Positions 1 to 18,165 of a stretch of 19,578 nucleotides of DNA are shown piece by piece. The position numbers and the translations under genes are program-made. Position 1 is the stretch's first letter. Each line of letters starts with the position of its first letter. The stretch is taken from UHGV virus genome UHGV-0149711; one strand, written 5' to 3'. The notes below the pieces were generated by a model. That model saw nothing but the letters and a program-made list of their open reading frames with translations, was not told the origin of the DNA and did not search any database. The DNA comes from a virus.

Positions 1-161
1 TGGTATTGCTTACGCCAGAGAAATAACTGGCTGGCTGCTACACCATGTTGCCGGGCAACGAGGGAGACCGTCATCCCTGGTTCAAAGCTCTGCTGAACAA
101 TTGCGATCTTTTCCTGTGTGGTACGCCGTCTGCGTTTCTCCGGTCCTAAGACATCAATCAT
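1..161 (-). CDS. insC: IS2 transposase OrfA (InsC), N-terminal fragment; 3' end lies outside the window
   Basis: ATG at 161..159 on the minus strand. My translation: [53 protein letters not shown]..., which matches the IS2 InsC N-terminus as recalled. It is not in the ORF track because it is partial. Confidence 0.85.
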
Positions 162-252
162 CTGCTCTCCAATGACTAGTCTAAAAACTAGTATTAAGAC
201 TATCACTTAAATAAGTGATATTGGTTGTCTGGTGATTCAGGGGGCCAGTCTA
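1..252 (-). mobile_element. IS2 insertion sequence, left end (partial; continues beyond window start)
   Basis: The reverse complement of 170-252 reads TAGACTGGCCCCCTGAATC...CAATATCACTTA(T)TTAAGTGATAGTCTTAATACTAGTTTTTAGACTAGTCATTGGAGAGCAGATGATTGATGTC, which matches the IS2 left terminal inverted repeat and orfA leader as I recall them. The element boundary is at 252/253. Confidence 0.88.
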
Positions 253-2029
253 CCGGGGTTTTTACCTTCAGTGTTTCATCCGATGTGCTTATTGTGCCCG
301 TGGCAGCATACACAACAGACCATCTATGTGATGTATATCCTAATACAGTCGTATTGTCTGCATCAGGCATGAATCCATTGTACCCGCCAATCTTAAAGTC
401 GCCGCTTGGGTTTCCTGGTGACAATTTACCGTCATAACTCGATAATGTTACCCCCTTTGTACCAGTAGTCGTAGTGAGCAGGATACCTGAATTAGTGGCA
501 CCAAGAATCTGTATTTCACTATTATCGTTGCGTAAGTCCTGAACAGGAGCCTCTAGTACAGATGAGGTAATTTTCCATTTTGTGTCAGAATAAAGCTCGG
601 CCGGAGATGAGTCGTCAGGCTGAATAATAAGCGCCCCTTTACCACTAGAACGCCTACGGCATCCAGTAACGTTTTTCTGGTCTGGGTCCATATTTGAGCT
701 AACAAGAACCCCGTCAAACTGGGATATGCTTTCATAACTGTTAGCACCTTGACGCTGTGCGTTCTCAGTTAGATACACCCATGACCAGTCAAAGTGGTTT
801 TCATAGGTTTTCACATTAAAATCAATCTGATACGGACGAGTACACAACTCGCCAAAAAATCCACGGAAGTGTATATTACCTGCCACTGATGTATCACTGT
901 TCACCGTCTTAACAATACGCACTGCGCATGGCACGTCTGCAGGCCAAGTACCTAGAGTGATATTCTCAGCGTGACCACCAAATACGCGCAAAGTGTCGGT
1001 AGACTCAATCCAAAAGCTACAATTTCCCGTAGCATGATGAGGGTTATATATATGGATGCGCGTATTATTATTATCGCCACTGACGCTGCGTTCAAAATAA
1101 AACCCGCAGTCTACACGCTCAAAGTTAGGGTTCATAATTGAGTGGTAGTATGAGCCGCTGTTTTCACCTGATACTGTTGGTCCCGGCTTGAATTTCAGTC
1201 CGACTTTTACTCCCCTTGCGCGTGGATTCTCCATTACACAAAATTGCTGTGACACACGCATGGTGACCTGAGATTCGTCTTCAGGAGCAATGGCGTAGGC
1301 AATAACGTCAGAGTAGTTATCTGGGTTAATTACTACAGGATTGATTATGTGGCAGAAATCATGGCTCATTCTTAAACATGTAATTCCCGAGTCTCCTGCT
1401 ACGATTGTTGTACCAGTAAAATCAATATACCGTGTAGATGTAACATCCTGTGTATACGAGCCATCGAACTTCATTACAAGACTTTGTGTTATGCGATATC
1501 TCGCACCTACTCTCCCTGTTAATTTACCAAAAGGTATTCCTTCGAGCCATGCTAATGCTGATAACATAGATGTGGTGTCGTCAACAATCCCATCACCAAT
1601 TGCCCCAAACTCTTCAAATGTTTTAATGGCTGTCGCCCGATGCGCTATCTGATCAATTGTTGAGCCATATTTTGTTAGACTCTGCCTTAGCTGATCAGGA
1701 TCATACTTCAGCACGTTTGGAAAATAGAACTGCTGTGCACCATACGCATCATAAACAGCCATAGAATGACCTTGCACCGTAACAAACTTGGCAATCTGTC
1801 CGTTATATACAGGGTAACCAGCAGAATTGATAATGATTGGTTGCGAAACAGGAATGTGAGATCCGTCTTCGTTCTCTACATAAACCTGAATCTGGTTTTC
1901 AGGATTTACCGGGTCAGTATCAATTTTACCGATATAAATTTTGCCATTGGCTACGGCTTTAAAAGAACGCGCCATAGTGAAGAGTTGCGAAGGCATACTC
2001 ACTACAACATTGGCTGTAATGTCTGTCAT
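203..2029 (-). CDS. Tailspike protein (P22 gp9-type N-terminal head-binding domain, divergent receptor-binding domain); 3' end truncated and fused to IS2
   Basis: The N-terminus [17 protein letters not shown]...[20 protein letters not shown]...[14 protein letters not shown]...NVLKYDPDQ is the conserved P22-family tailspike head-binding domain. SD (AGGAG) lies 8 nt upstream of the ATG at 2029. Native coding stops at about 254; residues [16 protein letters not shown] and the stop are encoded by the IS2 terminal repeat. Confidence 0.88.
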
Positions 2030-2193
2030 TTAATTTGCTCCTGACGTAGCAACGCCGAACAAGATGCAACTTGCCCGACATTGCATTAATGTAAGTTATG
2101 ATTTGTTAACTATGAGATGAGTCTATGCAAAAAGATCTGTTGAATATTGCGTTCTACATATTTGGTTTTTGCACGTTCCTGGTGTTTGCGAAG

Positions 2194-4587
2194 CTATTCT
2201 GACAACGCATCAGACTTAGCCCCCTGAGTCAGGGCGTTAATGGCCTTTTGTGCCTGCTGCATGGCTTTCTCGAACGCTGTTGATCCGCGTGGGGTATTTG
2301 CCATTCGGAGCATTGCATTTCTGAATGGTTCGCTCTCATAGGCGCGAGTAAGAAGTCCGTAGCTTACTGCTGCGCCAGTTGTCGCCGGGTTCATTGCCGT
2401 CCCATATCCGATAATGAACGGGATGGTTTGCTGCCCTGTTGGTGTTGTTACTGCCGCTTTTGCAGCCTGTTGCGTTGATTGCAGGTAGCTTTTCAATCCT
2501 TTCAGATAAGCAGCATCCTGACCTTTAAATGTGATGCCAGTCTGGTTTTGCAGGATGTTAAGCTGTCGAATGAACTGGTCAGGGGAACCACCTGATTTCT
2601 CCATCGCCTTTCCAATGATGCCATTGCGCATTTGCGCCCTACCAACACGACCAACTGAGTTATACAGAGTCTTAATTTCCGATTTGTTCTTGCTGAATAG
2701 CATGTTGTTGACAACTTCCGGCGTCAAGTCGCCTTTCATGAGAACATTCTTCAGCCTGGTATTCTTTAGTTTCGCCGCTTCGTCAGCGTAGACGGCATTG
2801 GCCTGCTGATATTTACGGAGAGTATCGTTGCCAAGATTCTGACCAATGGCACCATTGATATCGTCTGTCATCGCCTTGTAAACGCGCTGAATGGCAGCAT
2901 CGGAACGGTTTGGTAACACTGGTCGCTCACCCTTCACGTCCATTCTGAACTGGCTGCGCAGGTCGCTTAATTGCTTCAAATCCAGATTTACCGGACCATC
3001 AGGGCCAGCATTGCGAACAAGCTCATCACGATATGACTGAAGTTTTGAAATAGTCTCGTTATCAGCGACCTTACCAAGCTTCTGCAGGTTAGATATTTCT
3101 GTATCAATCTGCTGAATTGCTCGTGCAGGCTGAATGTTTACTCCTGCCATAGCATTCTGAACCTGCTCCAGTCGATTACCTGCAGCACGACGAATTCCTG
3201 ATGTTTTCGCTTTAAGGCTGTCAATAACAACAGCTGGATCATACTCACCGAATTTATCAGCAAATCTCTGCACCAACTGGCTTCTCGCTTCCTGTTGCGT
3301 TGCTCTCATTCCGCTTGTGCCGGCCAGGGGGATATTTTCCGCTGTCGTCTGCGCCATTTTCCCGACGCGGGAAGTAGGCTGTAACAGGTCTGTGGTGTGC
3401 AGAGGAACTCCTTCACGCTCTGCAAATCTGATAGCCTGCTGCGCTTCTGGCGCAATAGCACCACGAACGCCACGATAAGCAGCACCTAATCCACGTCCGG
3501 CAGCGTTAATAGCACCGCCAGCCAGCACACCAACGCCTAAATCGGTGGCGAGTGCTTCCGCATCATCTTTCGCACTATTTGCAGCAAGTGATCCAACTGC
3601 GTTTTCAGCGAGAAGACGAGTTGCCCCCTGAGCAATTCGCCCAGCAAGTGTTGGTGCCTGTGCTGCCGCTCTCTCAACGCCAGCAGGAGTGAGGTAAGGC
3701 AATGCTTCAGCAAATACCCTTCCCTCTGTCGTTTGTGGAGTCAGCGCGCCTTGCTGAAGGCCAAAGTCCTGCTCTAATCCCTGCGTTGTTACTCGTGGCG
3801 CTGGTTGATATGTACCATCGCCAATGCCGAGTTTACCGCCAGCCCAAGCCGCCGCGCTTGTTACAGCATCAGTGAGTTCAGCAGGTATGTTCGCTACGTT
3901 GATTCCTGCCTGTAGTAAGCCGCGCCCGGTTTCAGCAAGTCCATTACCAAGGTCAGACATTATTCCGCCTTGTTGCTGAACAGGTTTCGGTGCGACAGAA
4001 CTTACGGGTTGAGGTGGCTGCTGACTGGCTGCCTGCTGCTCAATCTGAGCAAATGGATTATTTGGGTCTGACTGCACACCTGATGCCGATACTTGTTCGG
4101 ATGACTGTACTTCCAGTTGTGCAAACGGGTTGTTAGGGTCTTGCTGAGGATGTACCTTTGCAGAGGTGGCGCGCTGTTCGACTGTTGAGTCTGTCACCGG
4201 GTCACCCGCCCATTGAGCAAAGCGATCATCAACGTAACCGCGGCCTTCAGGTCCTGGCGTATATTCACCACGCTTTGCCTTCATAACGTTGCCGGGACCG
4301 TCGTGATAAGCCTGAAGAGCGTCACGCCAGTTACCAAACTGCTGGTACATCTTTGCCAGATAGCGCGCGCCAGCGTCAGCCTGATATTCGGGGTTTTGCA
4401 TTTGCTCATCGGTATAACCCATATCACGCCATGTCCCAGGCATGACCTGAGTCAATCCTACAGCCCCGGCGGAGCTTACTGCGGCAGGGTTGTAAGAAGA
4501 CTCCTTGGCACCCAGTGCAGTCATCAACCCTTCTGGCACACCGTAACGTGCGCCAGCCTGCTCTAACAAATCACGGTAATTAGCCAT
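2194..4587 (-). CDS. Ejection (injection) protein, gp16-position, with N-terminal family-1 lytic transglycosylase (SLT) domain
   Basis: 797 aa. The N-terminal motifs GAKESSYNP...AGAVGLTQVMPGTW...Y are a canonical SLT signature. It starts at a TAAATG junction with the upstream ejection protein gene and is the last gene before the tailspike, as in P22 gene order. Confidence 0.85.
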   Translation of the reverse strand: MANYRDLLEQAGARYGVPEGLMTALGAKESSYNPAAVSSAGAVGLTQVMPGTWRDMGYTDEQMQNPEYQADAGARYLAKMYQQFGNWRDALQAYHDGPGNVMKAKRGEYTPGPEGRGYVDDRFAQWAGDPVTDSTVEQRATSAKVHPQQDPNNPFAQLEVQSSEQVSASGVQSDPNNPFAQIEQQAASQQPPQPVSSVAPKPVQQQGGIMSDLGNGLAETGRGLLQAGINVANIPAELTDAVTSAAAWAGGKLGIGDGTYQPAPRVTTQGLEQDFGLQQGALTPQTTEGRVFAEALPYLTPAGVERAAAQAPTLAGRIAQGATRLLAENAVGSLAANSAKDDAEALATDLGVGVLAGGAINAAGRGLGAAYRGVRGAIAPEAQQAIRFAEREGVPLHTTDLLQPTSRVGKMAQTTAENIPLAGTSGMRATQQEARSQLVQRFADKFGEYDPAVVIDSLKAKTSGIRRAAGNRLEQVQNAMAGVNIQPARAIQQIDTEISNLQKLGKVADNETISKLQSYRDELVRNAGPDGPVNLDLKQLSDLRSQFRMDVKGERPVLPNRSDAAIQRVYKAMTDDINGAIGQNLGNDTLRKYQQANAVYADEAAKLKNTRLKNVLMKGDLTPEVVNNMLFSKNKSEIKTLYNSVGRVGRAQMRNGIIGKAMEKSGGSPDQFIRQLNILQNQTGITFKGQDAAYLKGLKSYLQSTQQAAKAAVTTPTGQQTIPFIIGYGTAMNPATTGAAVSYGLLTRAYESEPFRNAMLRMANTPRGSTAFEKAMQQAQKAINALTQGAKSDALSE

Positions 4588-5919
4588 TTACTGCCCCAAA
4601 GATGGAAGATATCCGTAGCGATTAATGAAGTCGATTGACAGCTCGGGGTGCTGCTTCAGGTAATCTATAGAAGCCTGAGGCGCTTCCACTCGCTTGATAC
4701 CGTTTTGCTGAACGTACTTACCAACCGCCTCATTACGCTTCTGGTTGAGCGTGTTCAGGATGACGCCAGCGTTGCGACGAAAGGACTCCTCGCTCTGCGA
4801 GTTCTGCAGCGAACCAACAGCCTGGTCGAGCTTTTTGCCCTCGGCATCAGAAAGTGCGCCCATGCCTCGCATGGCCTGAACCGCTGTCAGGTATGCTTGT
4901 GATTTAAAGGTATCAAGTCGTGCCTGAGTGTCTGCAGCCTGTGAGCCTGGAACGTTGGGGATTACTCCACGTAAGCCTGTAATGCTCTTAAGTGAAGGAG
5001 AACTAACGATATCGTTCAGAGTGAACATGCTGGTTGTGAGGGTGTTGATGCCGTCTTTGTAGCCATCATTTAGCGCTTGCTGCTTCTGCTGCAACTGCTG
5101 GTTGTTGGCTGCTATGCGGCTCTGTATTTCCTGGCGCTTCAGGTCGTTAGTTTCTGCTGATAGCATCCGGTCAAGGCGCTTATTTTCGTTGTTAATGCGG
5201 TTTGTTTCTGCGTCCAGATTAATGCGCTGCTGACCTAAATTCGCCTGGATATCTTGTCCGCGCATTGTGATTGCCTGATTCCGAGCGGCGGTTTGCGAAT
5301 CCAGATCCTGACCGCGCATGGTAACCTGGCGACCCTGCATTTTATCCTGTAGGTCAAAGTATTTTTCGGGCCCGAGACTGTTCATCCCCAGGTGATCGAC
5401 AAATTCGCCGAACTGCCGCGGGTTCTGTTGGTACATCTGAGCGACGTCATGAGGATTAACGCCAACACGAGCTAACTCACCGGCGTTGTTTTGCAGCCAT
5501 GATTGCATTGCTTCTGGAGAAGATGACGCAAGACGTGCGCCAGCCGCTAATGTACCGATAGAATTACGCTGGTCTTCATCAATGAATCCCATGCCTTTAC
5601 GAACGGATTCAATCTGGTCTGGATATTGAGTAGCCAACTGACGCAAAGCACCGCGATCACCAGAAGCATAAGCATTAGCGTATGCCTGCTGAAATTCTTT
5701 CTGCCGCTGAGCCTGCTTTTCCTGCTGAAACACCCCTGCAATACCTGAAAGACCTTGCAAAGCAGTCAGCCCAACATTGTTAGCGCCTGAACGCTCAATA
5801 TCATTGTTCTGCCTGATAAGCTGAAGCGTATTGCCGATGTCATTTACGCTCGGAGCGTTTGAGTTGACGCCGCCGATACCAGCTAACAATCCGCCATTTG
5901 ATCCTTGCCAAGTAGCCAT
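4588..5919 (-). CDS. Ejection protein, P22 gp20-like
   Basis: 443 aa, Gln/Ala-rich with internal repeats (TMRGQD x2). It sits between the gp7-like and gp16-position genes, with its stop directly abutting the next start. Confidence 0.78.
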   Translation of the reverse strand: MATWQGSNGGLLAGIGGVNSNAPSVNDIGNTLQLIRQNNDIERSGANNVGLTALQGLSGIAGVFQQEKQAQRQKEFQQAYANAYASGDRGALRQLATQYPDQIESVRKGMGFIDEDQRNSIGTLAAGARLASSSPEAMQSWLQNNAGELARVGVNPHDVAQMYQQNPRQFGEFVDHLGMNSLGPEKYFDLQDKMQGRQVTMRGQDLDSQTAARNQAITMRGQDIQANLGQQRINLDAETNRINNENKRLDRMLSAETNDLKRQEIQSRIAANNQQLQQKQQALNDGYKDGINTLTTSMFTLNDIVSSPSLKSITGLRGVIPNVPGSQAADTQARLDTFKSQAYLTAVQAMRGMGALSDAEGKKLDQAVGSLQNSQSEESFRRNAGVILNTLNQKRNEAVGKYVQQNGIKRVEAPQASIDYLKQHPELSIDFINRYGYLPSLGQ

Positions 5920-5928
5920 GATTACCCC

Positions 5929-6621
5929 TTAAAACAACGAGCCAAGCAATCCGATACCAGCACCAATGCCAGCGCCCCAAGGTGTTGATGTTCCCAAAAG
6001 GCTGGCAAGACCTGCACCGGCAATCGCACCAGATGTTCCGCCACTAATTGCAGTCTGAAGACTTGATGGTTTATTGGCATTAGCAGCGGCAAGAGCTGCG
6101 CTTTGCTGTGCAATGCTGCTCATGTTGTTGGCGTATGTCTGCCCGGCGTTTGCCTGACCTTGCAGCGCACCAAGCCCAACGTTTGCCAGATTGTTGTAAT
6201 TGCTCATCTGATTTGATAACCAAGACTGACCGAGTGTCGGCGCGATCGTAGCCAGTTGATTGCTTGTGGCTGTCGAACCAAGTCCACCCGTCGCCTCCGC
6301 AGCAGCAAGACTCTGGTAACGCGCCTGCCCTGCAAGGTCTTTATACTGCTGAGAGTTGTAATACTGATTAAGTGCCTGCCCCTGACCTTCTAAACTGGAA
6401 AGGTTCTGAAGCTGGTTAACATACTGCTCCGCAAGAGGCGTGAACGGAGCAAGGTTTTTCATGATCGTCTGCCACTGCTGATTTTGCAGATCTGCAGCAT
6501 ACTTCTGAGCTTCTGCTGCATACTTTGCGCTTTTATCAGAACTGCCACCTTTCCCGCCTTTTTCAGGGCAATAAGGTTCCTCGCCGCGCAGCTTTCTGCC
6601 CAGCTTAAATGCATATAACAT
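5929..6621 (-). CDS. Ejection protein, P22 gp7-like
   Basis: 230 aa. The N-terminus MLYAFKLGRKLRGEEPYCPEKGGKGGSSDKSAKYAAEA matches P22 gp7 as recalled, with a Gly/Ala-rich C-terminus. Position is conserved. Confidence 0.88.
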   Translation of the reverse strand: MLYAFKLGRKLRGEEPYCPEKGGKGGSSDKSAKYAAEAQKYAADLQNQQWQTIMKNLAPFTPLAEQYVNQLQNLSSLEGQGQALNQYYNSQQYKDLAGQARYQSLAAAEATGGLGSTATSNQLATIAPTLGQSWLSNQMSNYNNLANVGLGALQGQANAGQTYANNMSSIAQQSAALAAANANKPSSLQTAISGGTSGAIAGAGLASLLGTSTPWGAGIGAGIGLLGSLF

Positions 6622-6623
6622 GG

Positions 6624-7079
6624 CTATCTCCCGTGATTCAGGAAGTCGATTAGTTCTTCGCGTGTGGCGCTGTAAAAAGTCACGTCATCCACGCCCTTGA
6701 AGTATTTCTTGATGGTTCCGACACGCTTAAGGCCAATCATTGCGCAGTACATCTGCCCGTGGCGGAATTTGCGTGCAGCGAACGATGTGACGCACTGAAC
6801 GGTGGTGTTAGTCAGAATGTATCGCCAGAACGCCAGCCCGATCTCCTTGCTGAATCCACGAACCTCTGGCAGGTACATGGCGTGGCAATCGAATGTCAGC
6901 GGCTGAATCTCCTGATAGTAAACAATGCCGCCGAACTGCCCGTGCACGTTCACCTCAAAGTAACGGCATTCAGGTTTGTAGTCGTATCCATCACCGTTGT
7001 TGCTCCCGGCGATAATGTCAGGGTGATTTCCTACGGCTTCTATCAGGTCGATGTTTCGCGTTGGTTTGAATGTAATCAT
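6624..7079 (-). CDS. P22 gp14-position protein
   Basis: 151 aa ORF between the needle gene and the gp7-like gene, translationally coupled (1-nt overlap with the upstream gene). Assigned by synteny; I cannot recall the P22 gp14 sequence to compare. Confidence 0.65.
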   Translation of the reverse strand: MITFKPTRNIDLIEAVGNHPDIIAGSNNGDGYDYKPECRYFEVNVHGQFGGIVYYQEIQPLTFDCHAMYLPEVRGFSKEIGLAFWRYILTNTTVQCVTSFAARKFRHGQMYCAMIGLKRVGTIKKYFKGVDDVTFYSATREELIDFLNHGR

Positions 7080-7780
7080 CAGTCAATAAGCCCATGTAAT
7101 CTAAGTGCCGTTTCAAGCGCCAGAATACGCTGCCGCGCCTGCTGCAAACCTGTAGCGAGTGCTGCGACTTCGGATTGTGTGTACGTAGTGCCGACTGTGT
7201 ATGACTGGTTAGCGTTGAATGAGCCAAGAAGAGGTGTACCTGTGGCTGCAGTCCATCCGGTATTTCTTGCTCCAATAACCTGAATTCCATCAACTGAATA
7301 TGATGTTTTTACATCCAGCGGTGACGCAAGAGACTGCGATTCGGTTACGGTTTTCGATACGTAATCACTCTTAATGTCAGATACATCGCTTTCTATGCCA
7401 TCCAGTCTTTGGTCAACAGTGACCAGATGCGCCTGAATAGCGATAACCTCATCCAGCAAGTAATCAACATCGCTACGCAGTACGACTATCTTCCCTTCGG
7501 CGGTTGTTAACCTGACCTCAAGGAGATTTATCGCTTTTGTGTTTGCGGTGATTCTTGCATCGTGGTCAGCCAGTTCGACATCCTGTTCATCGTTTTTCAC
7601 CTGAGCATCGTAAGCGCCCTGTCCGGCCTCGTTGGCCTTGTTAGCCACGTTACCAACATCAGTACCCTGTGCGATAACGTAAAGCAGGTAAGACTGGCTG
7701 AATATATTGCGTGGAAGGATTGATGTATCGAGCCGCGTCGCCTGCACAATAACAGGGGTGTTGAGATTCGAATCAGCCAT
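7079..7780 (-). CDS. Tail needle protein (P22 gp26-like)
   Basis: 233 aa. [43 protein letters not shown]...[24 protein letters not shown]... and the C-terminal ...LRLHGLID match P22 gp26 as recalled. Confidence 0.92.
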
Positions 7781-9198
7781 TACTCAATCCTTATCTGGCA
7801 GCCTGACAGAGTGACAGGTGACTTCGTGATAACGCGCAATTTGAAGCCGACATTTTTCCTGATGCGCCCGACTCGCTTCCACAAAACGCGTTTGTCGTAA
7901 ACGAACGGTTCATTCTGTTCAATCATCTGCTCACGTCCGTAATTTATGCCGTCAGTGGTTGCAGAGAGGAACAGGCTGTCGGCGTACTGAGCAACGCCAG
8001 TTGAAGATTCAACTTCAAGGTCGAAAACTCTGGCGTTATCCGCTTTGAACAGAGGAGTAAACAGCAGGTGTTCCTGTTGCTTGTCGTACTGGCTGCTGAT
8101 ATCGAACTGCAGTTTCCCGGTAACAGATTCCAGCTTATCGCCGCACGTTATCTGATTGCCTTCGTAAATGAAGTCGATAGCGCGGTACACATCGTCATAC
8201 AGGCCTGTTTTCAACACACACCATTGCGGACCATTGGCGCTTGAAGATGCGTCGTACACCAGAACATGGCGCGGAAGATGGATAATCAGCAGCTCATGCG
8301 CATCAAATCGCAGAGACTCCATCACGCCATCAGCCAGTTCATCAGCAGTGTAGGAGCGTAGTATTTTCTCAATGCTCGCGCTGGCGATTGGTGATACCTG
8401 ACCGGAGCCGATGATGTACACAGACGGCGCACCTGTTGCCGGATTGCTGATGAACGCATAAGAATCAGCGAATGGCGTTTTGCAGTAAGTCCCGGCGATG
8501 CCTTTTTGCACCATCAGTGATGGCTGTGCGACATACAAAGCAGCACCAACGGTAGTTGATCCTGTCAGGGAAAAATATTCAATCGTCGATGAACCAAAGC
8601 AGACGATGAAGTCTCGCCATGTCCCGATACCGATGATACCGTCAGGCTGAGACTCGGCACGATATTGTGCGCTGTATCGGTCAGGATGTGATTCGTCTTC
8701 AAGGTCAGTGATAAACCATGAATCAGTGCCGTCTTTTGACCACGCATAACGCCCACGTAAGCGTGTAATGTCGCGGACTGAACCTAACTCATACTGCGTG
8801 AATCCGCTGTCTGTAGGCCAGTTTGAGACGGTTTTAACCGTACCATCATAGCGATACTCGACCAGTTGACCATTAACGCCTACAGCCTGTGATGTCCGAC
8901 CATGTGCCATTGATACGCGACCACTTCCGGCAACGTCACCGACTTCACTTTCGCCTTTGTAGAGCTTGCCACCACACACGCGATAAACAGCATTCTGCGC
9001 CATGTTGTACTCGACACCGCGCGATACACCATTCACATCAGAGCGTTTGGCAATGCCCGGGAATGAGCGAAGATATCCGCTGCTGTTGAGGATTTCTTTG
9101 GGTGTAGCCAGCATATTCACTGGCAGATAGTCGATATAGTCGGCGTTTCGAAAGTCTTTGCCGACACCTTTCATAAGCGGAAGTTGCTGAATCGGCAT
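7780..9198 (-). CDS. Tail accessory/hub protein (P22 gp10-like)
   Basis: 472 aa, the same length as P22 gp10, in the conserved position between gp4 and gp26, with 1-nt overlaps on both sides. Confidence 0.88.
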
Positions 9199-9698
9199 TA
9201 TTCGCTCCCGTTATCGCAAGGTTCCTTTCGGTGGAAGTAATTCCAACCGTTCCACTTCGCCAACTGATTACCGCTACCAACAGGCATACGGTTTGGATAA
9301 CCGGACTTACATTTAGCGGCTTTTGCTCTGTCCATTGCAGACAGTTTGACGAGTCGCTCTTTCCCGTATCTGGCAGTGGTTATAAGTTTTGCAGAGGCTT
9401 CCAGCGCATAATCTGGAGCAATGCGGCATGCAAGGTTGAAAATGACGGCATTGATAGCGTTATTTGATAAACCGTGCTCATCGCCAGGATCCGGAGCGAC
9501 ATCTGCATCAGCAAAAATGTAGCCAACGTTGATCCCAGGTGACGCATCACCGCCAAGCCATTCAGCCATCATCATTTCAAGGTCGTTGACGCTGTCTTCC
9601 ATAGACTGCGGTTCGACATCGGTTAACGTGGCATTTGATGCAACACCGAGCTTACGTAATGCTGCAAGGACTAAATCACCCTTCGTTGTCAGGTTCAT
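9198..9698 (-). CDS. Head-tail adaptor / tail accessory protein (P22 gp4-like)
   Basis: 166 aa. ...[42 protein letters not shown]...HGL...[14 protein letters not shown]... matches P22 gp4 as recalled. Confidence 0.9.
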
Positions 9699-9906
9699 CT
9701 GCTGCCGCCTTAGGTTTTCGACCAGGCTTTTTACGCTGTTTTTCTTCTAGCTCTGGCTCTGCAACATCCTTCAAAAGGTCATCAGGATGTGAAAACCAGC
9801 CAGCATCCAGATATTCCTGAAGCTCTTCGGCTTTCACGATTTCAAAGTCGTATCCAACGCCTTTCCATTCCTTCATGTCTCCATGACGAAAGATCATGTG
9901 TGTCAT
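9676..9906 (-). CDS. Small acidic hypothetical protein between the coat and gp4 genes
   Basis: The track ORF 9676..10086 overlaps the coat gene; I trimmed it to the internal ATG at 9906, which has a GGAGA SD 5-6 nt upstream and lies just after the coat-gene terminator hairpin. 76 aa: [38 protein letters not shown]... Confidence 0.5.
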
Positions 9907-9919
9907 GCTTGTCTCCAGA

Positions 9920-9942
9920 TAAAAAGGGAGCCGAAGCTCCCT
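9920..9942 (-). terminator. Putative rho-independent terminator/attenuator immediately downstream of the coat gene
   Basis: The minus strand reads AGGGAGC-TTCG-GCTCCCT followed by TTTTTATCTGG: a perfect 7-bp GC-rich stem, a TTCG tetraloop and a T-run, starting about 8 nt after the coat stop codon. Confidence 0.6.
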
Positions 9943-9949
9943 CTGGTTA

Positions 9950-11245
9950 TCACGCGGTCTGATTAGGCAGACCAACACCAATTGCCTCTGGTCGTACAGC
10001 ACATGCTGAATACCACACAGCAATACGGCACTTACCAGACAGAGTGTTGATATCACCCTGCGTTGCGAAGATGCCGTTAACACCAATGCCAGGAATGCTG
10101 AAGGAAGAAGTTTTCATGCCAGCAAACAGTTCATGGGTTACCGGGATAGGCTGAGACAGCAGTCGGATTGAGTCATCAGCCCAGAACACGTTAGCGGTGG
10201 TTGTTGCCACGTTCAGAACATTTACCGGAGTGGCATCAGCAAGAGAGGTGTTTACGTTAGCGTAAGCCTTCTCTTCTTTTGTCAGTGACGCGTCATCCAG
10301 TGCAATCGGCTTCGGCGTGATTTCGATGTGAGTACTATCGATCACACGGGTGATTGAGAAAGTCGCATCATCAGTCAGCAAGTTCTTCGCCATCTGAGAC
10401 AGGAATTTCACACCAGTGAAGCTGATTTTGTCGCCGCGCTTAAACCCGGTGGTGGAGGATACGGTCACCGTTGCAACACGGTTGTCGACGTTCTCTTTGT
10501 TACCATCGGTATCAAGGGTGTATGCCTGCGGCTTAAACTTCTGCGCACCAGAAACAGTTACACCAGTAGCGGTTGACTTGGTAACTGCCGGAAGTTTCGG
10601 TGAGCGAAGAATTTCATCAAAGCCAGCAATCTGACGCTGAATAGTACCGTTGCGATACGCGTCTTCAGTAACGCGCCCGAAGATGTCACCATCTACCAGG
10701 TCGCGGCCTGCTTTGCGGTAATCGTCAGGGTTCAGGAAGTAACTGATGCCCATATCGCGGTTTAGCTCACGGGAGAACATCAGGCGCTCTGCATCAGACA
10801 CAAAATCCCAGCCAGACAGGCCAGTAGATGGACCAATTGCGCGGGTATCGTGAACAACAAGTGAGCCCATTTCGGTTGCCTGTTTGGCAATTGCTGACTC
10901 AATGTTATTCGCCAGTTTTTTGGCGGATGCCTGGATGCGGCGACGGTAAGAACGCTCATCACGCAGGTCATCTGCACGAAGCTCGAAGAAATCGTTATCC
11001 GGATCGCCCATGTTGCATTTCACGGACAGCTCCAGAATCCCGGTTGCGTTGCCAGTTAAATCCCAGCCAGTCTGAGTTGGCGCTTCCTGCTCAACAGGCA
11101 TCCACACGGTGTTGCTTGAACGTTGCATGGATTCTGCCGGAGGGGTGTATTTTGTCACTTTGGACGCCATTGGCGTCAGGTTCTGGACGGTTTCGATGAT
11201 TTCATCCAGAGCATACGTGACCAGTTGACCTTCATTTAATGCCAT
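9950..11245 (-). CDS. Major capsid (coat) protein, P22 gp5-like
   Basis: 431 aa. MALNEGQ...[25 protein letters not shown]...RQIAGFD..LRSPKLP..TKSTATG.TVSGAQ.FKP...[35 protein letters not shown]...[13 protein letters not shown] matches P22 coat protein along its whole length as recalled. Confidence 0.97.
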
Positions 11246-12156
11246 TATCGAATTCCTTTATTCAGTTGCGCCTTGAGCTTGCGGTATGTCTCTACATCCC
11301 CTTTGTTTGCTGCCGCTTCCATCTGCTTTTCAATCGCAGAGATATTTGCAGCAACAGCGTGTCCCTGAATGGGTTCATCAGGTAACGGGGCTTCTGAAAC
11401 AGGCTTGGCTCGAGGCTTGAGAGTTAAACGTTCTGACAGTCGAGTGAGTTCAATCAGCGCGGATTGCCCGTCCATCGCCAGCAACTGGCGTGTTTTCTCA
11501 GGATTAGCACCAAGGTGATACATGAGAGCAGCGGATTTCTCCGGGAAGAGGCGCATGATGTCGGCACCGACTGCTGGCGGCACCAGTTGCATGAATGCAT
11601 CCTCTTTCTCCTGATAGTCAGGGATATTGAGCTTTTCCGCTGCATCGTAGTGCTTACGGGCGGCCTCGACGTATTGCGCTGATTGCTGGGTGAACTCCTG
11701 AGTTTTGCGGCCCTGCTCGGCGACAGCCTGGCTTCGTGCGTCCATAGCCTTGATCTGCCATTCACTGTTTGCCTGCTGGAAGGCCGCCAGTGCGCGGCTC
11801 TGGTCATAGTCGTACTTAGCCAGTGCGTCTTCGGAAAGATAATCGTTAGGGTCTGGTTGTTTTGGTAACTCAGGGTTCACCCGCAGGTGCTCCGGCAATT
11901 CTCCACGCTTAACCGCTTCCATCTGCTGCTCAAGCTCACGCTGGCGTTTGCGTTCGATGCGGCGACGGGCAAATTCAGCATTAGTTGCCGGGTCTTGTTT
12001 TGGTTTCTCATCGTCTTTCAGGACAATCTCGAAGCCTTCTTCCTGACCTGCGTTGTCGTTGGCATTATCGACAACTAAGCCATCAGCAGATGCCGCTGCA
12101 TGATTGCCGGGCAGGGTTAATTCTTCAGAAGCCTGAATGTCGGTGGTTTGGTCCAT
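11245..12156 (-). CDS. Scaffolding protein (P22 gp8-like)
   Basis: 303 aa (the same length as P22 gp8), highly charged and helical in character, located between portal and coat, with a 1-nt overlap with the coat start. Confidence 0.9.
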
Positions 12157-12169
12157 GATTAACTCTCTC

Positions 12170-14335
12170 TTATTGAGGTGTCTCGGCTACTCCGCCGGAG
12201 GGGATTTGAACTTGACGCATAAGATTCGCGAAATCCATGCGTTGTGAATGAGTCTGGTCTGCATCTTTAAGAAGCAGCTCAGCGTTAGCACGAGCATCTT
12301 TGCTGCGCTGTTGCTGGAATTGACCTACGAGCTTGAGGTACTCACGCAGTTCTGCCTGCTTGTCGAGGTCCATATTGTTGAAGATTTCTGCAATCTTCGC
12401 GGCGTTGAGTTGGTTTTGAGCTTCAACCTTGGCAGCTTCAACCTGAATCTGCGCCTGTTGGTTCTCTGCCTTGAGCAATTCAGCCTGACCTTGCAGAAGG
12501 ATACCCTGCGCCTGAATTTGCTCTGCTGATGGCTGCTGCGGCTGCTGTTGCGCCTGTTGTACCATCTCCATCTCTTCAGGTGTTTCTGGTTTCTTCAGCC
12601 CCATCATCACCAGTTGCTTGTTCGCGTACTCTCGCATCATCTCGACGCCTTTACCGTCAAGCAGCGTGAAGTATTGCAGCATCAGCATCTGGAACTCTGG
12701 AGTACCTTGCGGAACCTTGGTGAGTAACTCCTGAATCTCTGCGCGGTTCTGTTCCTTCATACTCTGGAAGGATGGTCCAACGTCCGTATAACACTCATAG
12801 CGACCACGAATGTCGTTGAGTGTGACCACATTGCCGGACTGGTAATCTACAACTTGCGCGTAGAGTTGAACGTCTTTCTCGCTTCCGTCTTCAAGAGTCA
12901 GCGTTACATGGCGAGGAACGTCATAAATATCGTTGACCATTGAGGCATAAATCTCGCCATCACGTCGCATTGCGGTAGCCAGGTTATCCTGAAACACGTA
13001 TGTCTCAAGGTCTGCCCGCATGTTCAGTTGATTGACGGTATCGAAAGCGACCTGACCATTTGCCGCCTGCGCATCCACGCCAAGACTAGCCACCTCTTTC
13101 ACTGCGTTGGTGGCTGCCTCAAGCATGTAAGCGTTGGCTTGCGGCACTTCAGGGTTTTCCATGTAGGAGATTGGACCAATCGGCAGGTCGTTACCGTTTT
13201 CATCGGTCCTGTTCTGCAGATAGTACGGATAGTCATCATTTCCACCGTACATGTATTCGTAGCCTTCGATTTGCTCAGGGAAGAAGGTCGGTTTCTTCTT
13301 CGGTGAACGAGCAACAATATCGGCGTTGAACGACATGATCATGTTACGAAGGCGTTGACCGTCTTTCGTCAGCCTTACCACTCCTTCATAGCACTCCTTG
13401 TCACCAGCGAATGACCATTCACCATACACTGGAACGATTGGAATATGCTCTCCGGCTATCTTCTCGCGGTCTTTCAGTATCTGCGTACAGGTGATGATCG
13501 ACTTATACACACGCCGACGCTTCACCTTGCGCTCTGCTACCTTAATGAATCCACGATTAGCCAGGTCGTCGATGACGTCTTTGATATCCTGCTGGTAATA
13601 GCTTACCGGCTCACCTGTCAGCGGGTCGCGGTAGATGAAGACTTTCTCTTTCTTCTCTTCGACCTCGTAATACTCAGCGACGTAGACGACATCATTCGAT
13701 ACCCACGGAAACAGCCATGTATCGTTCGGATTCTGGAAAGATGGCAAGGTGTCCGGATCAATACCGTAATCCTCTGCGAACTCTTTCCAGCCATTGCGCG
13801 ACAAGGCGTTAATCACCGTGCAGTGCTTAGCGTCGCTCTTATCCATCTGCTTGCTGTTGGCGTCCCATATGACGTGTGAGCAGGCTTCATGGATTGGCAG
13901 GCGTCTGATTACCTGGTTGTTGCTTGTTGGATCGTTGTCTTCGTACTGTGTGACCAGACGCCATGCACCAACGCCGGACTCTATCTGCTCACGAACGCCA
14001 ACGTTAACGGCAATTTTTGCCGTGTTATGGCGCATATCGGTACGATACATTCCCATCAACACATCGGCAGCATCAGGATTAGCTCCGTCTTTTGGTCTGA
14101 AGAGAACGTCGATAGGGTTACGGCGCATCTCTGCGACCAGCTTCCTGACCACCGGGCGAACAACATCGAATTGTCCGCGATATTGCAGGGTAGTGTAGTT
14201 TGATAGCCAGTCATCCCATTGCGACACTCGGCTAAAATACAGGTCATTTGTCGCCTCGGTTCTGGCTTCATCGCTCGCCATCCAGTCCGCGTCAAACTTA
14301 CACAGAATGGAATTGAGTCTGTTTTCGTCGGCCAT
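12170..14335 (-). CDS. Portal protein (P22 gp1-like)
   Basis: 721 aa. The N-terminus [66 protein letters not shown]... and the C-terminal Gln-rich barrel segment match P22 portal as recalled. Confidence 0.97.
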
Positions 14336-15835
14336 TTAAGTTCTCCGTGCGATGGGCCTGATTGGGGCTGGTATCTTTTTCTCTTTTGGTTTTTTGATGT
14401 CGCGCATCATTTTGGCGAAGCGGCGCATCATGTATGCATAGCGAACGGCGGATAGCACGTCGTCGTTAAGCTTGACGATCTTCCCGTTTTCATCACGGTG
14501 ATAGAGGCGGAACTCCTCAAAGAATGGCTCACAGGTGTTGAATACTTTGAAGCGACCATCAAGCATCATGTCGCGCAATTCAGTGATTCCAGGCTCCACA
14601 GCGTTACCGCCATCAGGCCATGTCGCATGCTCCTGCAACATCATAAAACCAGCGTCCGCGTACTGCCCTTTGAGCTGCTCACCGCCGCCCTTCTCATGCT
14701 GGTTTCCGTCATGAGGCCATGCGGTTGGCACTTTATGCGCCCATGATTTAACAGCTCCCCATGCCTGAACAGCTGTTTTTTCTTTCGCCTTCCACACGCG
14801 TGAAACGTAGATTGTGTCTGCGTCCTTATCCCACCAAAGCTGAACCTGCGCCTGTGGGTGATCCCATCCAAAATCCATCCCACCAATTACGTAGAAGTGA
14901 TCAGGACACTCGAACGGCTGACACTTAATAGTCTCTTCCGGTATCTGGAAGATTCGACCGCTACCCATCGTAGGAATACCGCGAGCACGCGCCTCTCTCT
15001 CATGCTCGGGATAGGATGCGATGATTTGCTCTTTCTGCTCGTCGGTGTAGTGCTCAGCGTCATAGATGGTCATGTTGACCACTTTCTGCGACTTGCTGGG
15101 ATTCTTCAGGAACTTGGTAACAACGTCAGACATCCCCATCAGCGGGGTAAACGTCAGAATTGAGAATTGCCCGTATTTGTTGGTACGGGTAAGGCCTTCG
15201 CCATAAATGCTGTATGGTGGCTCTTCGTCAAACCACACGCCGTGGATTGTGTCACCCTGCCAGCGAGCGCGGCCTTGCGAGTATGGTTTGAAGTAGCAGA
15301 TTGAAATGCCATCTTCAACGCCATCAGCCGTGTGATGCTTAACCAGAAGATGATCAACAAGGTTCGGAAAGAAAGGAGACTTCTTCCAGCTAATGATGTC
15401 TTCTTTAGGTATGGAACCGTAGCCTGGCTCATCATTCTCTTCGATACGACCACACAGGATGCGTTGAGTCGTTTTGGTTACAGTCTCGTTTGTCTCGCCG
15501 CCAATCCAGAAGACAACAGGCTCATAGAAACGCTTACCTTTCCACTCCCCACCATATTTACCATCAGCCGGATAGCCTTTTGTTCCCGGATAACGCCCGG
15601 TAAGGTGAAACGCGACTTCAGCAGCCCCAGTAAATGACTTACCAAGCTGGTTCCCAGCCATAAAACAGCGCTCTGGATAGTCATGCCCGGCGTCGATGAA
15701 CTCACGCTGTTTGCTGTATGGCGTAAATTCATATAGCAGGTGTGTGTTCCGGTAGTTCTCTTCTTCTTCGAGTAGCTCGAGCAACTCGATTTGCTCTTCG
15801 TCGCTCAGGTTATCAAGAATCGCGTCCAGTTCCAC
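14336..15835 (-). CDS. Terminase large subunit (P22 gp2-like)
   Basis: 499 aa. [37 protein letters not shown]...GNQLGKS (Walker A)... is near-identical to P22 gp2 as recalled. Its start overlaps the 3' end of the small-terminase gene. Confidence 0.97.
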
Positions 15836-16301
15836 GGTTGAATAGCTCCTTGATACGAGAGCGTCGCTTATCGCGATCTCCCTTATCAGGTGTCACGTCT
15901 TCAACTTGCGACTGCTCTTTGAGGCCCAAATCACGGGCGATGATGTTAGCGTTGAGAAGGTCAGCGGCAGCGCCAGAGAATTTCTGGTCGTAGATGATGT
16001 CTTCCGCTCGTGATGTGACGTCAGAAAAACCTTCCATTGACCGGAAGGTTCCCCATGTTTGCCTGGTGATATCAAGGAAGGTACACAATCCTGAAATAGT
16101 CATGGCTCGCATCTTAGGGACATTAGCCTTAATTATTTCTCCCTGATATGAAAATACCTTACCCTCCCATAGCGGGTTATCATCAGCCCACTCGAAGTAT
16201 TCACAACAAGCAGCCCACAGCGCCTCAGGCGATTCGAATTTAGGATTTCGCCCATGACTACTGCGGGCCTCCCAAAATCGGTTGCCCTTTGGTGCTGCCA
16301 T
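15813..16301 (-). CDS. Terminase small subunit (P22 gp3-like)
   Basis: 162 aa. [38 protein letters not shown]...[59 protein letters not shown] matches P22 gp3 as recalled, with a divergent central segment. SD AAGGGA upstream. Confidence 0.95.
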
Positions 16302-16306
16302 ATTGA

Positions 16307-16396
16307 TTATTTCCCTTCTGCTTGCTTATCCCATTCATCGCGGAATTTGGATGGGTTGTCGAAGCCCTGAGAGCCTGAACAAACTTTGATTACCAT
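16307..16396 (-). CDS. Putative 29-codon micro-ORF immediately upstream of the small terminase gene
   Basis: ATG at 16396..16394 overlaps the stop of the upstream Cys-rich ORF (TAATG). SD AAGGAG is 7 nt upstream. It encodes [29 protein letters not shown] and its stop is 5 nt before the gp3 ATG. Not in the ORF track (below its length cutoff). Confidence 0.25.
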
Positions 16397-16590
16397 TACT
16401 TAGCTCCTTTCTGCTTGCCTGTGTTTGATGTCGTTTCAGCAGCAGCCCCAGAGCAATTAACGCTACCCGCAACACCATATCCATAACCAGTCTTGAAGAA
16501 ATTATTGCCAGTAAATTGGTTAACAATCTTCCCGCAGCACGGGCAGCGTTGGCATTGGCAATAAGGGGATTGATTATTCCAGTGATACAT
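16396..16590 (-). CDS. Small Cys-rich / Gly-rich hypothetical protein (64 aa)
   Basis: I trimmed the track ORF 16396..16665 to the ATG at 16590, which has a strong SD (AGGAGA, 6-nt spacer). Product: MYHWNNQSPYCQCQRCPCCGKIVNQFTGNNFFKTGYGYGVAGSVNCSGAAAETTSNTGKQKGAK. It has no transmembrane segment and carries a CxCxxCxCC cluster. Confidence 0.4.
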   Translation of the reverse strand: MYHWNNQSPYCQCQRCPCCGKIVNQFTGNNFFKTGYGYGVAGSVNCSGAAAETTSNTGKQKGAK

Positions 16591-16963
16591 CTTGTTTCTC
16601 CTGAATGAATGGCAGGAAGTGATTAACCATCCTGTCCAGCATGTAACAGTACGTCTCGTTGGCATCTTCAGGCCTTGTCGTCACGCCGACATCAGAGCAA
16701 ACGTAAAAGCAGACGTGGGCGCACTCATGAACGAGCGTAGCGATCTGCTGATCGAATACTCCAATCAGATAGCATCGCTCACCCGTATCAGTGTTTTCAT
16801 AGTTGCTTGCAAACCCAAGATTGAATGGCTTCTCATCCCCGCTGCCGCCAAGGAATTTATCAGCGTGCTGAAACTGTTCTCTGGTTGTTGCGAGGTAGAC
16901 ATGTGCACTTTGAAACAGCGGAATGGTGAACGCCGGGAGTTTGTGCCATTTGGCCTTAGCCAT
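16574..16963 (-). CDS. Putative zinc metallopeptidase (HExxH motif), family unassigned
   Basis: 129 aa with HECAH at residues 79-83 (nt 16715..16729), preceded by hydrophobic residues (IATLVHECAHV) as in SprT-like or ImmA/DUF955-type peptidases. SD GGAG is 8 nt upstream. Its ATG is 1 nt after the stop of the upstream 80-aa ORF. Confidence 0.55.
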   Translation of the reverse strand: MAKAKWHKLPAFTIPLFQSAHVYLATTREQFQHADKFLGGSGDEKPFNLGFASNYENTDTGERCYLIGVFDQQIATLVHECAHVCFYVCSDVGVTTRPEDANETYCYMLDRMVNHFLPFIQEKQDVSLE

Positions 16964-16964
16964 A

Positions 16965-17207
16965 TCACACTCCGGTGGTGAACAGGTCTAACGCTTCCTT
17001 CGATTTACGCACCGCTTCGATAGTTCGGGTCGTGATATCTGAATTAGCGCCACCTGACTGGAAGTGAATTTTGAATAGCTCAAGCTTCAGCTCGTCAGTG
17101 CCAATGAATTGAAATGCTTCTTCTGCGGCTGCGTTCTGGTTCATGACCAGTTTGTAAATCTCTAACTGGAATTTCTGTTCTTCAGTCATGGGAATAATCT
17201 CTGCCAT
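16965..17207 (-). CDS. Hypothetical small protein (80 aa), first gene of the small-ORF string upstream of the terminase
   Basis: MAEIIPMTEEQKFQLEIYKLVMNQNAAAEEAFQFIGTDELKLELFKIHFQ... SD GGAG is 7 nt upstream. It is tightly coupled to the downstream HExxH ORF. Its size and position recall the small ORF I remember upstream of P22 gene 3, but I cannot verify this. Confidence 0.5.
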   Translation of the reverse strand: MAEIIPMTEEQKFQLEIYKLVMNQNAAAEEAFQFIGTDELKLELFKIHFQSGGANSDITTRTIEAVRKSKEALDLFTTGV

Positions 17208-17463
17208 TGTTGGCTCCGTTTATCCGTTAAAAGGGATATCAGTTAAGTTATCCCGTGTAGGGTATAAGCCATTGTCGAGACCACTCATTGAATGGCCTCT
17301 GCAATAACCGATGTCTTTCCATCAGTCCGCCACCACAAAGAATCTTTTTTGCCATAAGGCTGGAGGTTCATCTTTCAGTGGCTGCCAGTGTTATTTCCCC
17401 ACTTACTGGCTTGGGTTGTTTCGCGGTACTGCCGTAATGCAAAAACTGGATTAACCTGCGAAA

Positions 17464-17994
17464 TCACACCATTCCGGGCAAATACATTTGCACTTCATTT
17501 GCCGCTCTCTCACGTGCAACATGAAGCAATCTTTTTCGCCCACCAACGCCCCACTTAGCCATTTGGTTTGCGCACTGGCTTATCGCTTTGGTTTCAGTAT
17601 TGATGATGTGATCGATTCTATTCAGACGGGACATTGCGCCAACGCCGAGACGGACAACCGTTTTGAAAACTTCATAAACTTCGATTTCAAATTCCGGCTT
17701 AATCCATGCTGCATATCTGATTGCCAGAAGTTCAACACCCCACACACCTGGTTCTGCACCACCTTTGATTGTTTTAAGTGGTTGAATTTGTTCCAAAGTG
17801 CTTTTTTGCACTTTGGCCTCCAGTGCTTTTATGAAGCGTTTTATCTGCGCGCTACGCAAAAACTGGCTTGGGCGCTGTTGCTCTGTAGCCTCTCCATTTG
17901 CAACTGCTGCTGCATGGAGATCGTTTAAGTTGTAGCGTCCATCCTCATCAACACGAACGGACACACCATTGACAATAACTGTTGGGTACTTCAT
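17464..17994 (-). CDS. KilA-N domain-like protein (putative DNA-binding/regulatory accessory gene)
   Basis: 176 aa. The N-terminal pattern TVIVNGVSVRVDEDGRYNLNDLHAAAVANG fits the KilA-N/APSES-type signature (I..R.D.DGRY.LNDLH.A.G). It is flanked by non-coding DNA on both sides (17208-17463 and 17995-18339). Confidence 0.55.
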   Translation of the reverse strand: MKYPTVIVNGVSVRVDEDGRYNLNDLHAAAVANGEATEQQRPSQFLRSAQIKRFIKALEAKVQKSTLEQIQPLKTIKGGAEPGVWGVELLAIRYAAWIKPEFEIEVYEVFKTVVRLGVGAMSRLNRIDHIINTETKAISQCANQMAKWGVGGRKRLLHVARERAANEVQMYLPGMV

Positions 17995-18140
17995 CAGTGA
18001 TTACCTTTTAGTGATGAACCTTGTCACACAGGATTCCGGCCCACAGAAAGGCACCGATCACCAAACCGGCATCCTCAAGGGTCATCCTGAAAGGTTCTGT
18101 GTTCAGAAGTCGCGCGTGTGAAGCGCGTTTGTTGCAGATA

Positions 18141-18165
18141 TAAAAAAGCCCCGCGAATGCGAGGC
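18141..18165 (-). terminator. Putative rho-independent terminator downstream of Rz
   Basis: The minus strand reads GCCTCGC-ATTC-GCGGGGC followed by TTTTTTAT: a 7-bp GC-rich stem with one G.U pair and a U-run. A second GC hairpin (CGCGC-N7-GCGCG, 18111-18127) is adjacent. Confidence 0.55.

Follow-up and report, generated by a model that had tools for sequence, protein, structure and literature searches.

P22-type tailspikes that lack a chaperone domain fold unaided, and the P22-type N-terminal domain can trimerise. The K1-specific P22-like prophage CUS-3 is a described precedent for the joining of a P22 anchor to a chaperone-bearing endosialidase. In the endosialidase endoNF, S911 and K916 constitute the catalytic dyad, R897 lies in the stalk and is needed for cleavage, and S911 was replaced in an S911A construct (PMC8326128). 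Within the chaperone domain, GVIAQ is a conserved trimerisation motif, and the domain is required for the triple beta-helix to fold (PMC8326128; PMC3742440).

The window analysed here was an entire metagenome contig (ENA ERZ1743987, NODE_1055, 19,578 bp), one end of which fell inside an IS2 element. In our reading, held with high confidence, it carried the tailspike gene of a P22-like Escherichia coli prophage, composed of four modules and cut by IS2 at 10 codons into the chaperone-coding region, so that the spike is probably disabled.

Modules of the tailspike encoded by a P22-like late operon

The P22-like late operon lay unbroken upstream of the spike gene (nt 2194 to 19557, minus strand; Pfam assignments and an ORF map free of other disruption), and its gene order was (i) holin, an ORF without a Pfam match at the endolysin position, Rz, KilA-N, and gp3 and terminase (the small and large terminase), followed by (ii) portal, scaffold, coat, gp4, gp10, and gp26-, gp14-, gp7-, gp20-, and gp16-like genes. 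The coat, portal, and terminase were of P22 type, and the gp16-like protein carried an SLT domain. The spike gene was the last of the operon, directly preceded by the gp7-, gp20-, and gp16-like (ejection-protein) genes, and thus held the position of a P22-type tailspike gene. The fused spike ORF ran from nt 2029 to 203 on the minus strand and encoded 608 aa (ORF list and translation): its native part comprised 592 codons (nt 254 to 2029, minus strand; ORF list, translation, and identical or near-identical IS2-fused proteins in other assemblies), codon 593 spanned the spike/IS2 junction, and an IS2-encoded read-through tail added 16 codons plus TGA (nt 203 to 253, minus strand; ORF translation). 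Public records name this 608-residue product 'phage tailspike protein', and the record deserves a flag as an IS-truncated pseudogene product.

The P22-type head-binding (virion anchor) domain occupied residues 1 to 113 (nt 1691 to 2029, minus strand). It covered the PF09008 Head_binding profile fully from 1 to 113 (E=7e-67; 223 bits, the cut-off being 24) and displayed 86-88% identity to the N-terminus of Sf6 gp14 and about 70% to that of P22 gp9, in agreement with the preliminary description, which had assigned roughly the first 110 residues to the P22-family head-binding domain. In phmmer searches against PDB, only residues 1 to 118 aligned to the P22/Sf6 spikes, and no similarity to them was found beyond about residue 118; the accompanying claim that the remaining residues do not resemble the P22 endorhamnosidase region held at the sequence level, while the fold class was still a right-handed beta-helix.

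The core of the receptor-binding/depolymerase module was predicted to be a right-handed parallel beta-helix at residues ~135 to 420 (nt 770 to 1627, minus strand; AF2 and Foldseek). A structure prediction of this domain had been proposed as a check, and it gave a beta-helix of depolymerase-type fold: pLDDT values of 70-95 were reached for residues ~135 to 420 only, with a mean pLDDT of 60.9 over the full length, and global TM-scores of the spike model were low because the remainder of the model was poor. Foldseek retrieved the Sf6 TSP, phi92 colanidase gp150, Acinetobacter spikes, GH28 enzymes, and RbmB lyase; it gave no single close structural match for the beta-helix, and no solved structure was similar by sequence (phmmer, PDB). 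The modelled structure supported a generic depolymerase fold for the receptor-binding module.

The C-terminal stalk of the mature spike was assigned to residues 421 to 582 (nt 284 to 769, minus strand; 4hiz, PF12219, and 3gw6) and ended at the predicted cleavage site T582/S583. Residues 550 to 582 aligned to the final 33 of 4hiz, an endosialidase chain from phi92, a weak PF12219 match lay in the stalk at the C-terminal end of that profile, and the invariant Arg569 was encoded at nt 325 to 323. The chain end of 4hiz was the residue aligned with T582, which fits cleavage between T582 and S583. Directly after the stalk came the first 10 codons of the intramolecular chaperone/autocleavage domain, S583 to P592 (nt 254 to 283, minus strand; invariant TSD...K and alignment with 4uw8/3gw6), starting within the motif TSDETLK, where Ser583 (nt 283 to 281) and Lys588 (nt 268 to 266) were found at the same coordinates as first described and only 4 more native codons followed.

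The S-x4-K spacing of this motif had been taken as the dyad arrangement of peptidase S74 type. The spacing alone was not above chance (3 occurrences in 592 residues versus 2.0 expected from shuffles, p=0.32), another occurrence, YSDTKWK (residues 480 to 486), was also of SD-x3-K form, and the bare motif was dropped as evidence. It was homology that made the motif meaningful, since it was invariant and, in alignments to solved chaperone domains, fell on their catalytic residues: (i) T582, S583, D584, K588, and R569 were invariant in 24 aligned homologues; (ii) Ser583 lay opposite the Ala of the Ser-to-Ala crystallisation constructs TADARLK (4uw8) and TANGERK (3gw6), and Lys588 lay opposite their Lys; and (iii) Arg569 lay opposite the 3gw6 Arg found 14 residues before the mutated Ser, an offset equal to that from R897 to S911 in endoNF. 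Ser583, Lys588, and Arg569 accordingly aligned with S911, K916, and R897 of endoNF, and the assignment to an S74-type dyad stood on these grounds.

The chaperone domain missing from the fused product

An allele from E. coli NZ_OZ197100 was 99.6% identical to that of the window (5 differences in 1,350 nt); its 5' end was truncated by IS3, and its 3' end was intact. From the exact base at which IS2 started in the window, this allele ran on in frame for 109 residues: its DNA across the IS2 point read ...AAAACCCCGG followed by CAACAAACG, and its protein read ...KVKTP up to the IS2 point and then ATNESAEREAANEIRKNIIRYKF...HFGVGAQTV...RYDELIMFLAMYA. Nearly the same tail was present in protein P0006 and in Citrobacter freundii protein P0010. 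The remnant predicted to have been displaced from the window gene includes CAACAAACGAGAGTGCGG....

A reconstructed protein of 701 residues, composed of window residues 1 to 592 and the NZ_OZ197100 tail, was used for the profile search that the preliminary description had proposed. Pfam Peptidase_S74 (PF13884) matched from residue 583 with 23.9 bits for the 138-residue C-terminal segment and 20.2 bits for the full-length protein, against a cut-off of 22, while an NCBIfam search of the reconstructed protein returned no family. In phmmer searches of PDB sequences, its residues 550 to 698 matched 7y5s (Kp7 fibre; 2e-23), 9vvr (8e-19), 4uw8 (T5 pb1; 2e-15), 3gw6 (endoNF; 9e-11), 6eu4 (7e-10), and 3gud (GA-1 gp12 chaperone; 1e-8). 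The window's own ORF gave no PF13884/S74 match in Pfam; having just 10 domain residues before the IS2 sequence, it is to be regarded as a truncated former S74 member and not as a member, the body of the S74 domain being absent from the window product and present in the uninterrupted NZ_OZ197100 allele.

A homologue search with residues 114 to 592 gave 33 proteins, many of which carried a precomputed PF13884 match and three of which corresponded to the IS2-fused product with at most one residue changed. All of the non-IS-fused homologues that reached the motif (28/28) kept TSD-x3-K and then continued for 93-145 further residues, contradicting the possibility, raised together with the original proposal, that homologues of this spike end near the motif without an autocleavage domain; moreover, the motif H-x-G-x-x-A-Q was invariant in the C-terminal homologue alignment. 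The chaperone fold itself was recognised on the homologue P0010, not on the window's own product: when the last 202 residues of this intact relative were modelled by AF2, pLDDT was 86-97 after the motif, the top 13 PDB matches of its tail in Foldseek were all chaperone domains (3gw6, 4uw8, 3gud, and MyRF 7dc3) with noise thereafter, and 3gud matched the tail model with a TM of 0.74 at 3.3 A. Comparison of the tail with phage genomes gave 528 records, including K1F 'gp17-CTD' and T5 'L-shaped tail fibre protein precursor' ('ltf precursor'), and Pfam gave no matches for the genes that follow the spike gene in relatives. Sequence homology together with the modelled fold identified the missing C-terminal part as an intramolecular chaperone domain of peptidase S74 type. 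The other refuting condition set beforehand, a remnant lacking chaperone similarity, was answered in favour of the proposal by way of the near-identical NZ_OZ197100 tail, and the preliminary description had been largely right in its interpretation.

IS2 insertion and its predicted consequence

At nt 1 to 252 (minus strand; alignment to annotated IS2 copies) lay the left end of an element of the IS2 family (IS3 family), which had the orientation of the spike gene and ran off the contig. It displayed both a terminal repeat starting from nt 252 with TAGACTGG and an orfA starting at nt 161, the called IS gene having PF01527 HTH_Tnp_1, and this combination identified the element as IS2-family; its identity was about 99% with the F2_407 variant and about 95% with K-12-type IS2. 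The annotated IS2-family copy in strain F2_407 had the structure TAGACTGG...GGGGCAAATCCA and was flanked by the 5-bp duplication CACGG. The IS homology in the window began at the same TAGACTGG terminus, directly after ...AAAACCCCGG, and a 5-bp target site CCCGG abutting this terminus was predicted at nt 253 to 257 (minus strand) from the intact allele and the CACGG duplication at the F2_407 copy. The insertion point was 10 codons (S583 to P592) into the chaperone domain. IS2 had thus landed in this domain as first described, though at 10 codons instead of the roughly 9 then counted, and the statement that IS2 had removed the domain was too strong: it is displacement of the chaperone coding sequence by IS2 that the junction establishes.

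The domain might be gone from the genome altogether, had an IS2-mediated deletion or rearrangement taken the chaperone remnant and, possibly, the genes downstream of it as far as the integrase. Such a loss would agree with the contigs never reading through IS2, with the heavy erosion of related prophages at the same locus by IS3 and IS1, and with zero matches to the predicted right junction, ...GGGGCAAATCCA-CCCGG-CAACAAACGAGAG..., in pattern scans of genome contigs and metagenome contigs. However, exact-pattern scans of the same collections for the left junction also gave zero matches, which renders the right-junction negative uninformative on deletion, and the junction lay at the precise IS terminus, as simple transposition predicts; a deletion is considered rather unlikely.

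By the preferred reading, in which IS2 interrupted a four-module spike gene, the intact protein would have had about 701 residues, comprising a P22-type anchor (residues 1 to 113), a beta-helix polysaccharide-binding/depolymerase module, a C-terminal stalk, and a C-terminal chaperone. As in the family literature (PMC8326128; PMC3742440), the chaperone would trimerise via its C-terminal helices and template the folding of the upstream trimeric stalk; once the trimer had folded, it would cut itself off at T582/S583 by means of the Ser583/Lys588 dyad, helped by Arg569. An IS2-family element would then have transposed into the gene, 10 codons inside the chaperone domain. The resulting fused ORF contained the whole mature spike (residues 1 to 582), Arg569, Ser583, Lys588, 4 further native residues, and 16 IS2-encoded residues, and its product was devoid of the chaperone body (H-x-G-x-x-A-Q motif and C-terminal helix). 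Deprived of the chaperone, the stalk would fail to trimerise, and the particles would be spike-less, non-adsorbing, and non-infectious, an early stage of prophage decay. What the analysis established is how the spike is built, where the junction lies, which domain is missing, and that this junction recurs in other assemblies. Loss of spike function is the likely outcome in our analysis, with some doubt left because the P22-type N-terminal domain is a trimerisation module in its own right. The insertion looks recent on sequence grounds, the rest of the late operon being intact and the IS2-fused copies being almost identical; beyond the spike gene, the late operon displayed no independent sign of decay. 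As an event, it is an ordinary one of a type already known, namely an IS hit on a prophage structural gene, within a well-characterised domain family.

It is improbable that the fused product still trimerises, nucleated by its P22-type N-terminal domain, and we give an equally low probability to a functional truncated spike, in which the mature part 1 to 582 was kept, the chaperone was dispensable, and the prophage remained viable. The complete mature part was indeed encoded, the remaining late operon was intact, and the fused allele occurred in several samples; nevertheless, the chaperone was kept in every full-length homologue whatever its anchor type, P22-anchored ones included, and a prophage can persist without infectivity. 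Were the fusion to trimerise, it would amount to a natural 'chaperone-deletion' experiment, making the chaperone dispensable in this chimeric architecture, and would account for the persistence of an otherwise intact prophage in several samples.

The same fused protein was called on several contigs, every one of which stopped inside IS2. The NCBI isolate contig GCA_028651475.1 (JAPTQB010000048) had 1 difference from the window in 11,841 nt and ended 14 bp past the fused stop, and a short scaffold (L006) from another metagenome was identical to the window over a stretch that began at its nt 147 and took in the junction. In L006, the upstream sequence and the first ~11 codons differed from the window; unless the scaffold is chimeric, this reflects recombination within the conserved 5' end. 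A chimera assembled at a repeat, in a metagenome of low coverage, would be in keeping with the coverage of about 6x given in the contig name, the contig end inside a multicopy IS, and the differing 5' context of L006, itself possibly chimeric; yet the junction lay exactly at the IS terminus and recurred in an isolate genome assembly and an unrelated metagenome, and this precise terminus together with the independent recurrence makes an artefact of assembly very unlikely. A merely coincidental Ser/Lys motif in a protein naturally ending near it, a reading to which the chance-level frequency of S-x4-K (3 versus 2.0 expected) and the window ORF without an S74 match would be congenial, has a negligible probability and was refuted by the extension of all 28 non-IS-fused homologues for 93-145 residues with a chaperone domain and by the alignment of the invariant motif with known catalytic residues.

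The receptor-binding module, its hosts, and known systems

In the homologue set, the receptor-binding module followed a P22 head-binding anchor in some proteins and a TSP1/Gp66-type anchor (PF18668) in others, and it also occurred without a recognised anchor; the cultured phages carrying it were the Kuttervirus phages SS3, SS9, SeKF_64, phage 38, and PhaxI plus the 41-kb E. coli phage vB_EcoS_P1338. Judged from this distribution, the module is mobile, with one receptor-binding-plus-chaperone cassette found across podophages of P22-like type, myophages of the genus Kuttervirus, a 41-kb phage whose name marks it as a siphophage, and proteins in which no anchor was recognised.

The comparison with the host O-antigen, likewise proposed beforehand, was performed on 5,426 complete E. 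coli genomes with two queries: (i) the spike core nt 600 to 1600 for the module, found in 7 genomes, and (ii) the wzy-wzx segment of the O166:H15 strain JNE21-009 for O166, found in 18. All four genomes carrying the module at at least 90% identity were O166, and so was one of the three with diverged copies (72-77% identity); the hypergeometric probabilities were 8e-11 for 4/4 and 5e-12 for 5/7, values that ignore shared ancestry. E7476 was among the carriers at at least 90% identity and would be O166:H27 provided that it and E7476A, typed O166:H27 (PMC5149512), are one strain. Two or more H types were represented among the O166 module carriers, whose prophages differed in state of decay. A low-stringency O166 search found no O166-related cluster in either of the two non-O166 module carriers (23CRST032 being one of them), and the O166 strain 1190 harbored, at the same intS locus, a P22-like prophage with an unrelated spike lacking a chaperone; the association between module and O166 is one-way.

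From this host association, the receptor-binding module appears to target the O166 O-antigen, which is a circumstantial lead. A polysaccharide specificity different from that of P22 had been implied for it earlier: the sequence was indeed unlike that of P22/Sf6, but specificity was there an implication put too strongly, to which the circumstantial O166 evidence is now added. The O-antigens of E. coli O166 and Salmonella O66 are described as closely related (Liu et al. 2010, as cited in PMC10370184), a likeness that would fit the occurrence of the module in Salmonella phages, and perhaps the cassette also recognises Salmonella O66. No paper tying a tailspike to O166 was found in the literature searched. 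The O166 prediction is testable, and if true, it would give a receptor to Kuttervirus spikes left unplaced by the Ackermannviridae subtype paper, which assigns other spikes of PhaxI, SS3, and SS9 to O157, O78, O4/O9 or O21 and does not mention the module-bearing spike.

Set against the known systems, the locus combined features of several. With endoNF (phage K1F gp17, 3GW6; MEROPS/Pfam Peptidase_S74), it shared the Ser-x4-Lys dyad, the Arg 14 residues upstream, the G-V-x-A-Q motif, the helical C-terminal body, and the position of the chaperone directly after a trimeric stalk, but the identity was about 27%, a sialidase beta-propeller there contrasted with an unrelated beta-helix here, and the window product held just the first 10 residues of the chaperone domain. 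For the end of the stalk together with the chaperone, the T5 L-shaped fibre pb1 (4UW8) and the Klebsiella phage Kp7 fibre (7Y5S) were the nearest relatives of solved structure; both are fibres with other N-terminal parts and receptor-binding tips, having neither a P22 anchor nor a beta-helix depolymerase. P22 gp9 and Sf6 gp14 (Lederbergvirus) shared the head-binding domain, a spike gene that follows those for the ejection proteins, and a right-handed beta-helix as general architecture, whereas their spikes had no sequence similarity to that of the window beyond about residue 118 and carry no autocleaving chaperone domain. The spikes of the Kuttervirus (Ackermannviridae) phages PhaxI, SS3, SS9, SeKF_64, and phage 38 contained the same module, with 76-79% aa identity over residues 114 to 592, and at least that of phage 38 had the same chaperone tail (93.5%); unlike the spike studied here, they are anchored by a TSP1/Gp66-type domain (PF18668) instead of the P22 head-binding domain.

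Cassette exchange and mosaicism of the spike

The cassette composed of the receptor-binding module plus the intramolecular chaperone domain at the C-terminus (window 254-1690; proteins P0004-P0031) was joined to N-terminal parts of at least three types, namely P22 Head_binding, TSP1/Gp66 (PF18668), and none recognised, and it was distributed among Escherichia, Salmonella, and Citrobacter phages of podo-, myo-, and sipho-type; a relative in Vibrio displayed 37% identity. Sequence comparison with loci L002, L003 (E7476), and L007 (MLI104K1) and with the homologous protein P0005 further located mosaic breakpoints within the spike itself, at window ~560-600: alleles H1, H2, and H4 of the O166 prophages shared ~94% DNA identity as far as residue ~489, beyond which they diverged across the stalk and the chaperone domain, and the chaperone domain of P0005 was composed of a first half of window type and a second half of H1 type. 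A second SD-x3-K motif, YSDTKWK (window 572-589; residues 481-486), was found in the stalk, far upstream of the predicted cleavage site, and its S481 and D482 were nearly invariant in the homologues.

The PhaxI homologue P0029 (NC_019452 120253-121689) was recorded as a 474-residue 'tail protein' with unrelated residues at its end; despite this ending, the entire 479-residue query was aligned by tblastn at the same coordinates as a single piece, a result suggestive of a frameshift or an annotation error in the PhaxI record.

IS elements and genes around the spike

The IS at window 1-252 was a diverged IS2 variant with ~99% identity to the F2_407 copy and ~95% to K-12-type IS2, and the differing positions included some in the terminal repeat (CTGAATCACCAG in the window IS and CTGAATCTCCAG in the others). 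An IS2-fused gene was also present in L006, a scaffold of 1,945 bp from a different metagenome, and it was identical to that of the window from scaffold nt 147 on; the upstream region plus the first ~11 codons of L006 (MSDIT...) differed between L006:1-146 and window 1997-2142, owing either to a recombination event within the conserved 5' end that encodes the head-binding domain or to chimerism of the scaffold. Other IS elements repeatedly eroded the related prophages at the argW-intS locus (L001:2773-5679 and L007:2271-5001): (i) the 5' third of the spike was truncated by IS3 in NZ_OZ197100 and (ii) IS1 adjoined the spike start in MLI104K1, with loss of all sequence upstream of IS1.

The spike gene came next after the gene for a 797-aa gp16-like ejection protein (window 2194-4587) that has an SLT lytic-transglycosylase domain at its N-terminus (PF01464 and PF26808); the gap between the two genes was only 164 nt long (window 2030-2193) and contained no immI-type region. 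In E7476 (L003:718-2911), the homologous spike was directly preceded by genes of the Arc family and of P22AR (antirepressor-like) type. A 176-aa KilA-N domain ORF (window 17464-17994) was flanked by the lysis genes on one side and by the small terminase gene on the other.

The receptor-binding module and serogroup O166

The O166 wzx/wzy cluster (L011:17358-20575) was rare, being found in 18 of 5,426 complete E. coli genomes. Among such genomes, it was present in all four carriers of the receptor-binding module (window 284-1627) at ≥90% identity and in five of the seven carriers at any identity; the association was strong and one-way, from module to O166.

O166 strain 1190 harbored a P22-like prophage at the same argW-intS locus, and its 553-residue spike (L014:3672-6012) had no chaperone domain, was followed by an acyltransferase gene, and shared only the head-binding domain with the window spike; thus, O166 hosts carried at least two unrelated P22-type spikes.

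The receptor-binding module was also found in Salmonella Kuttervirus phages, and the O-antigens of Salmonella O66 and E. coli O166 have been reported as close relatives (PMC10370184, citing Liu et al. 2010).
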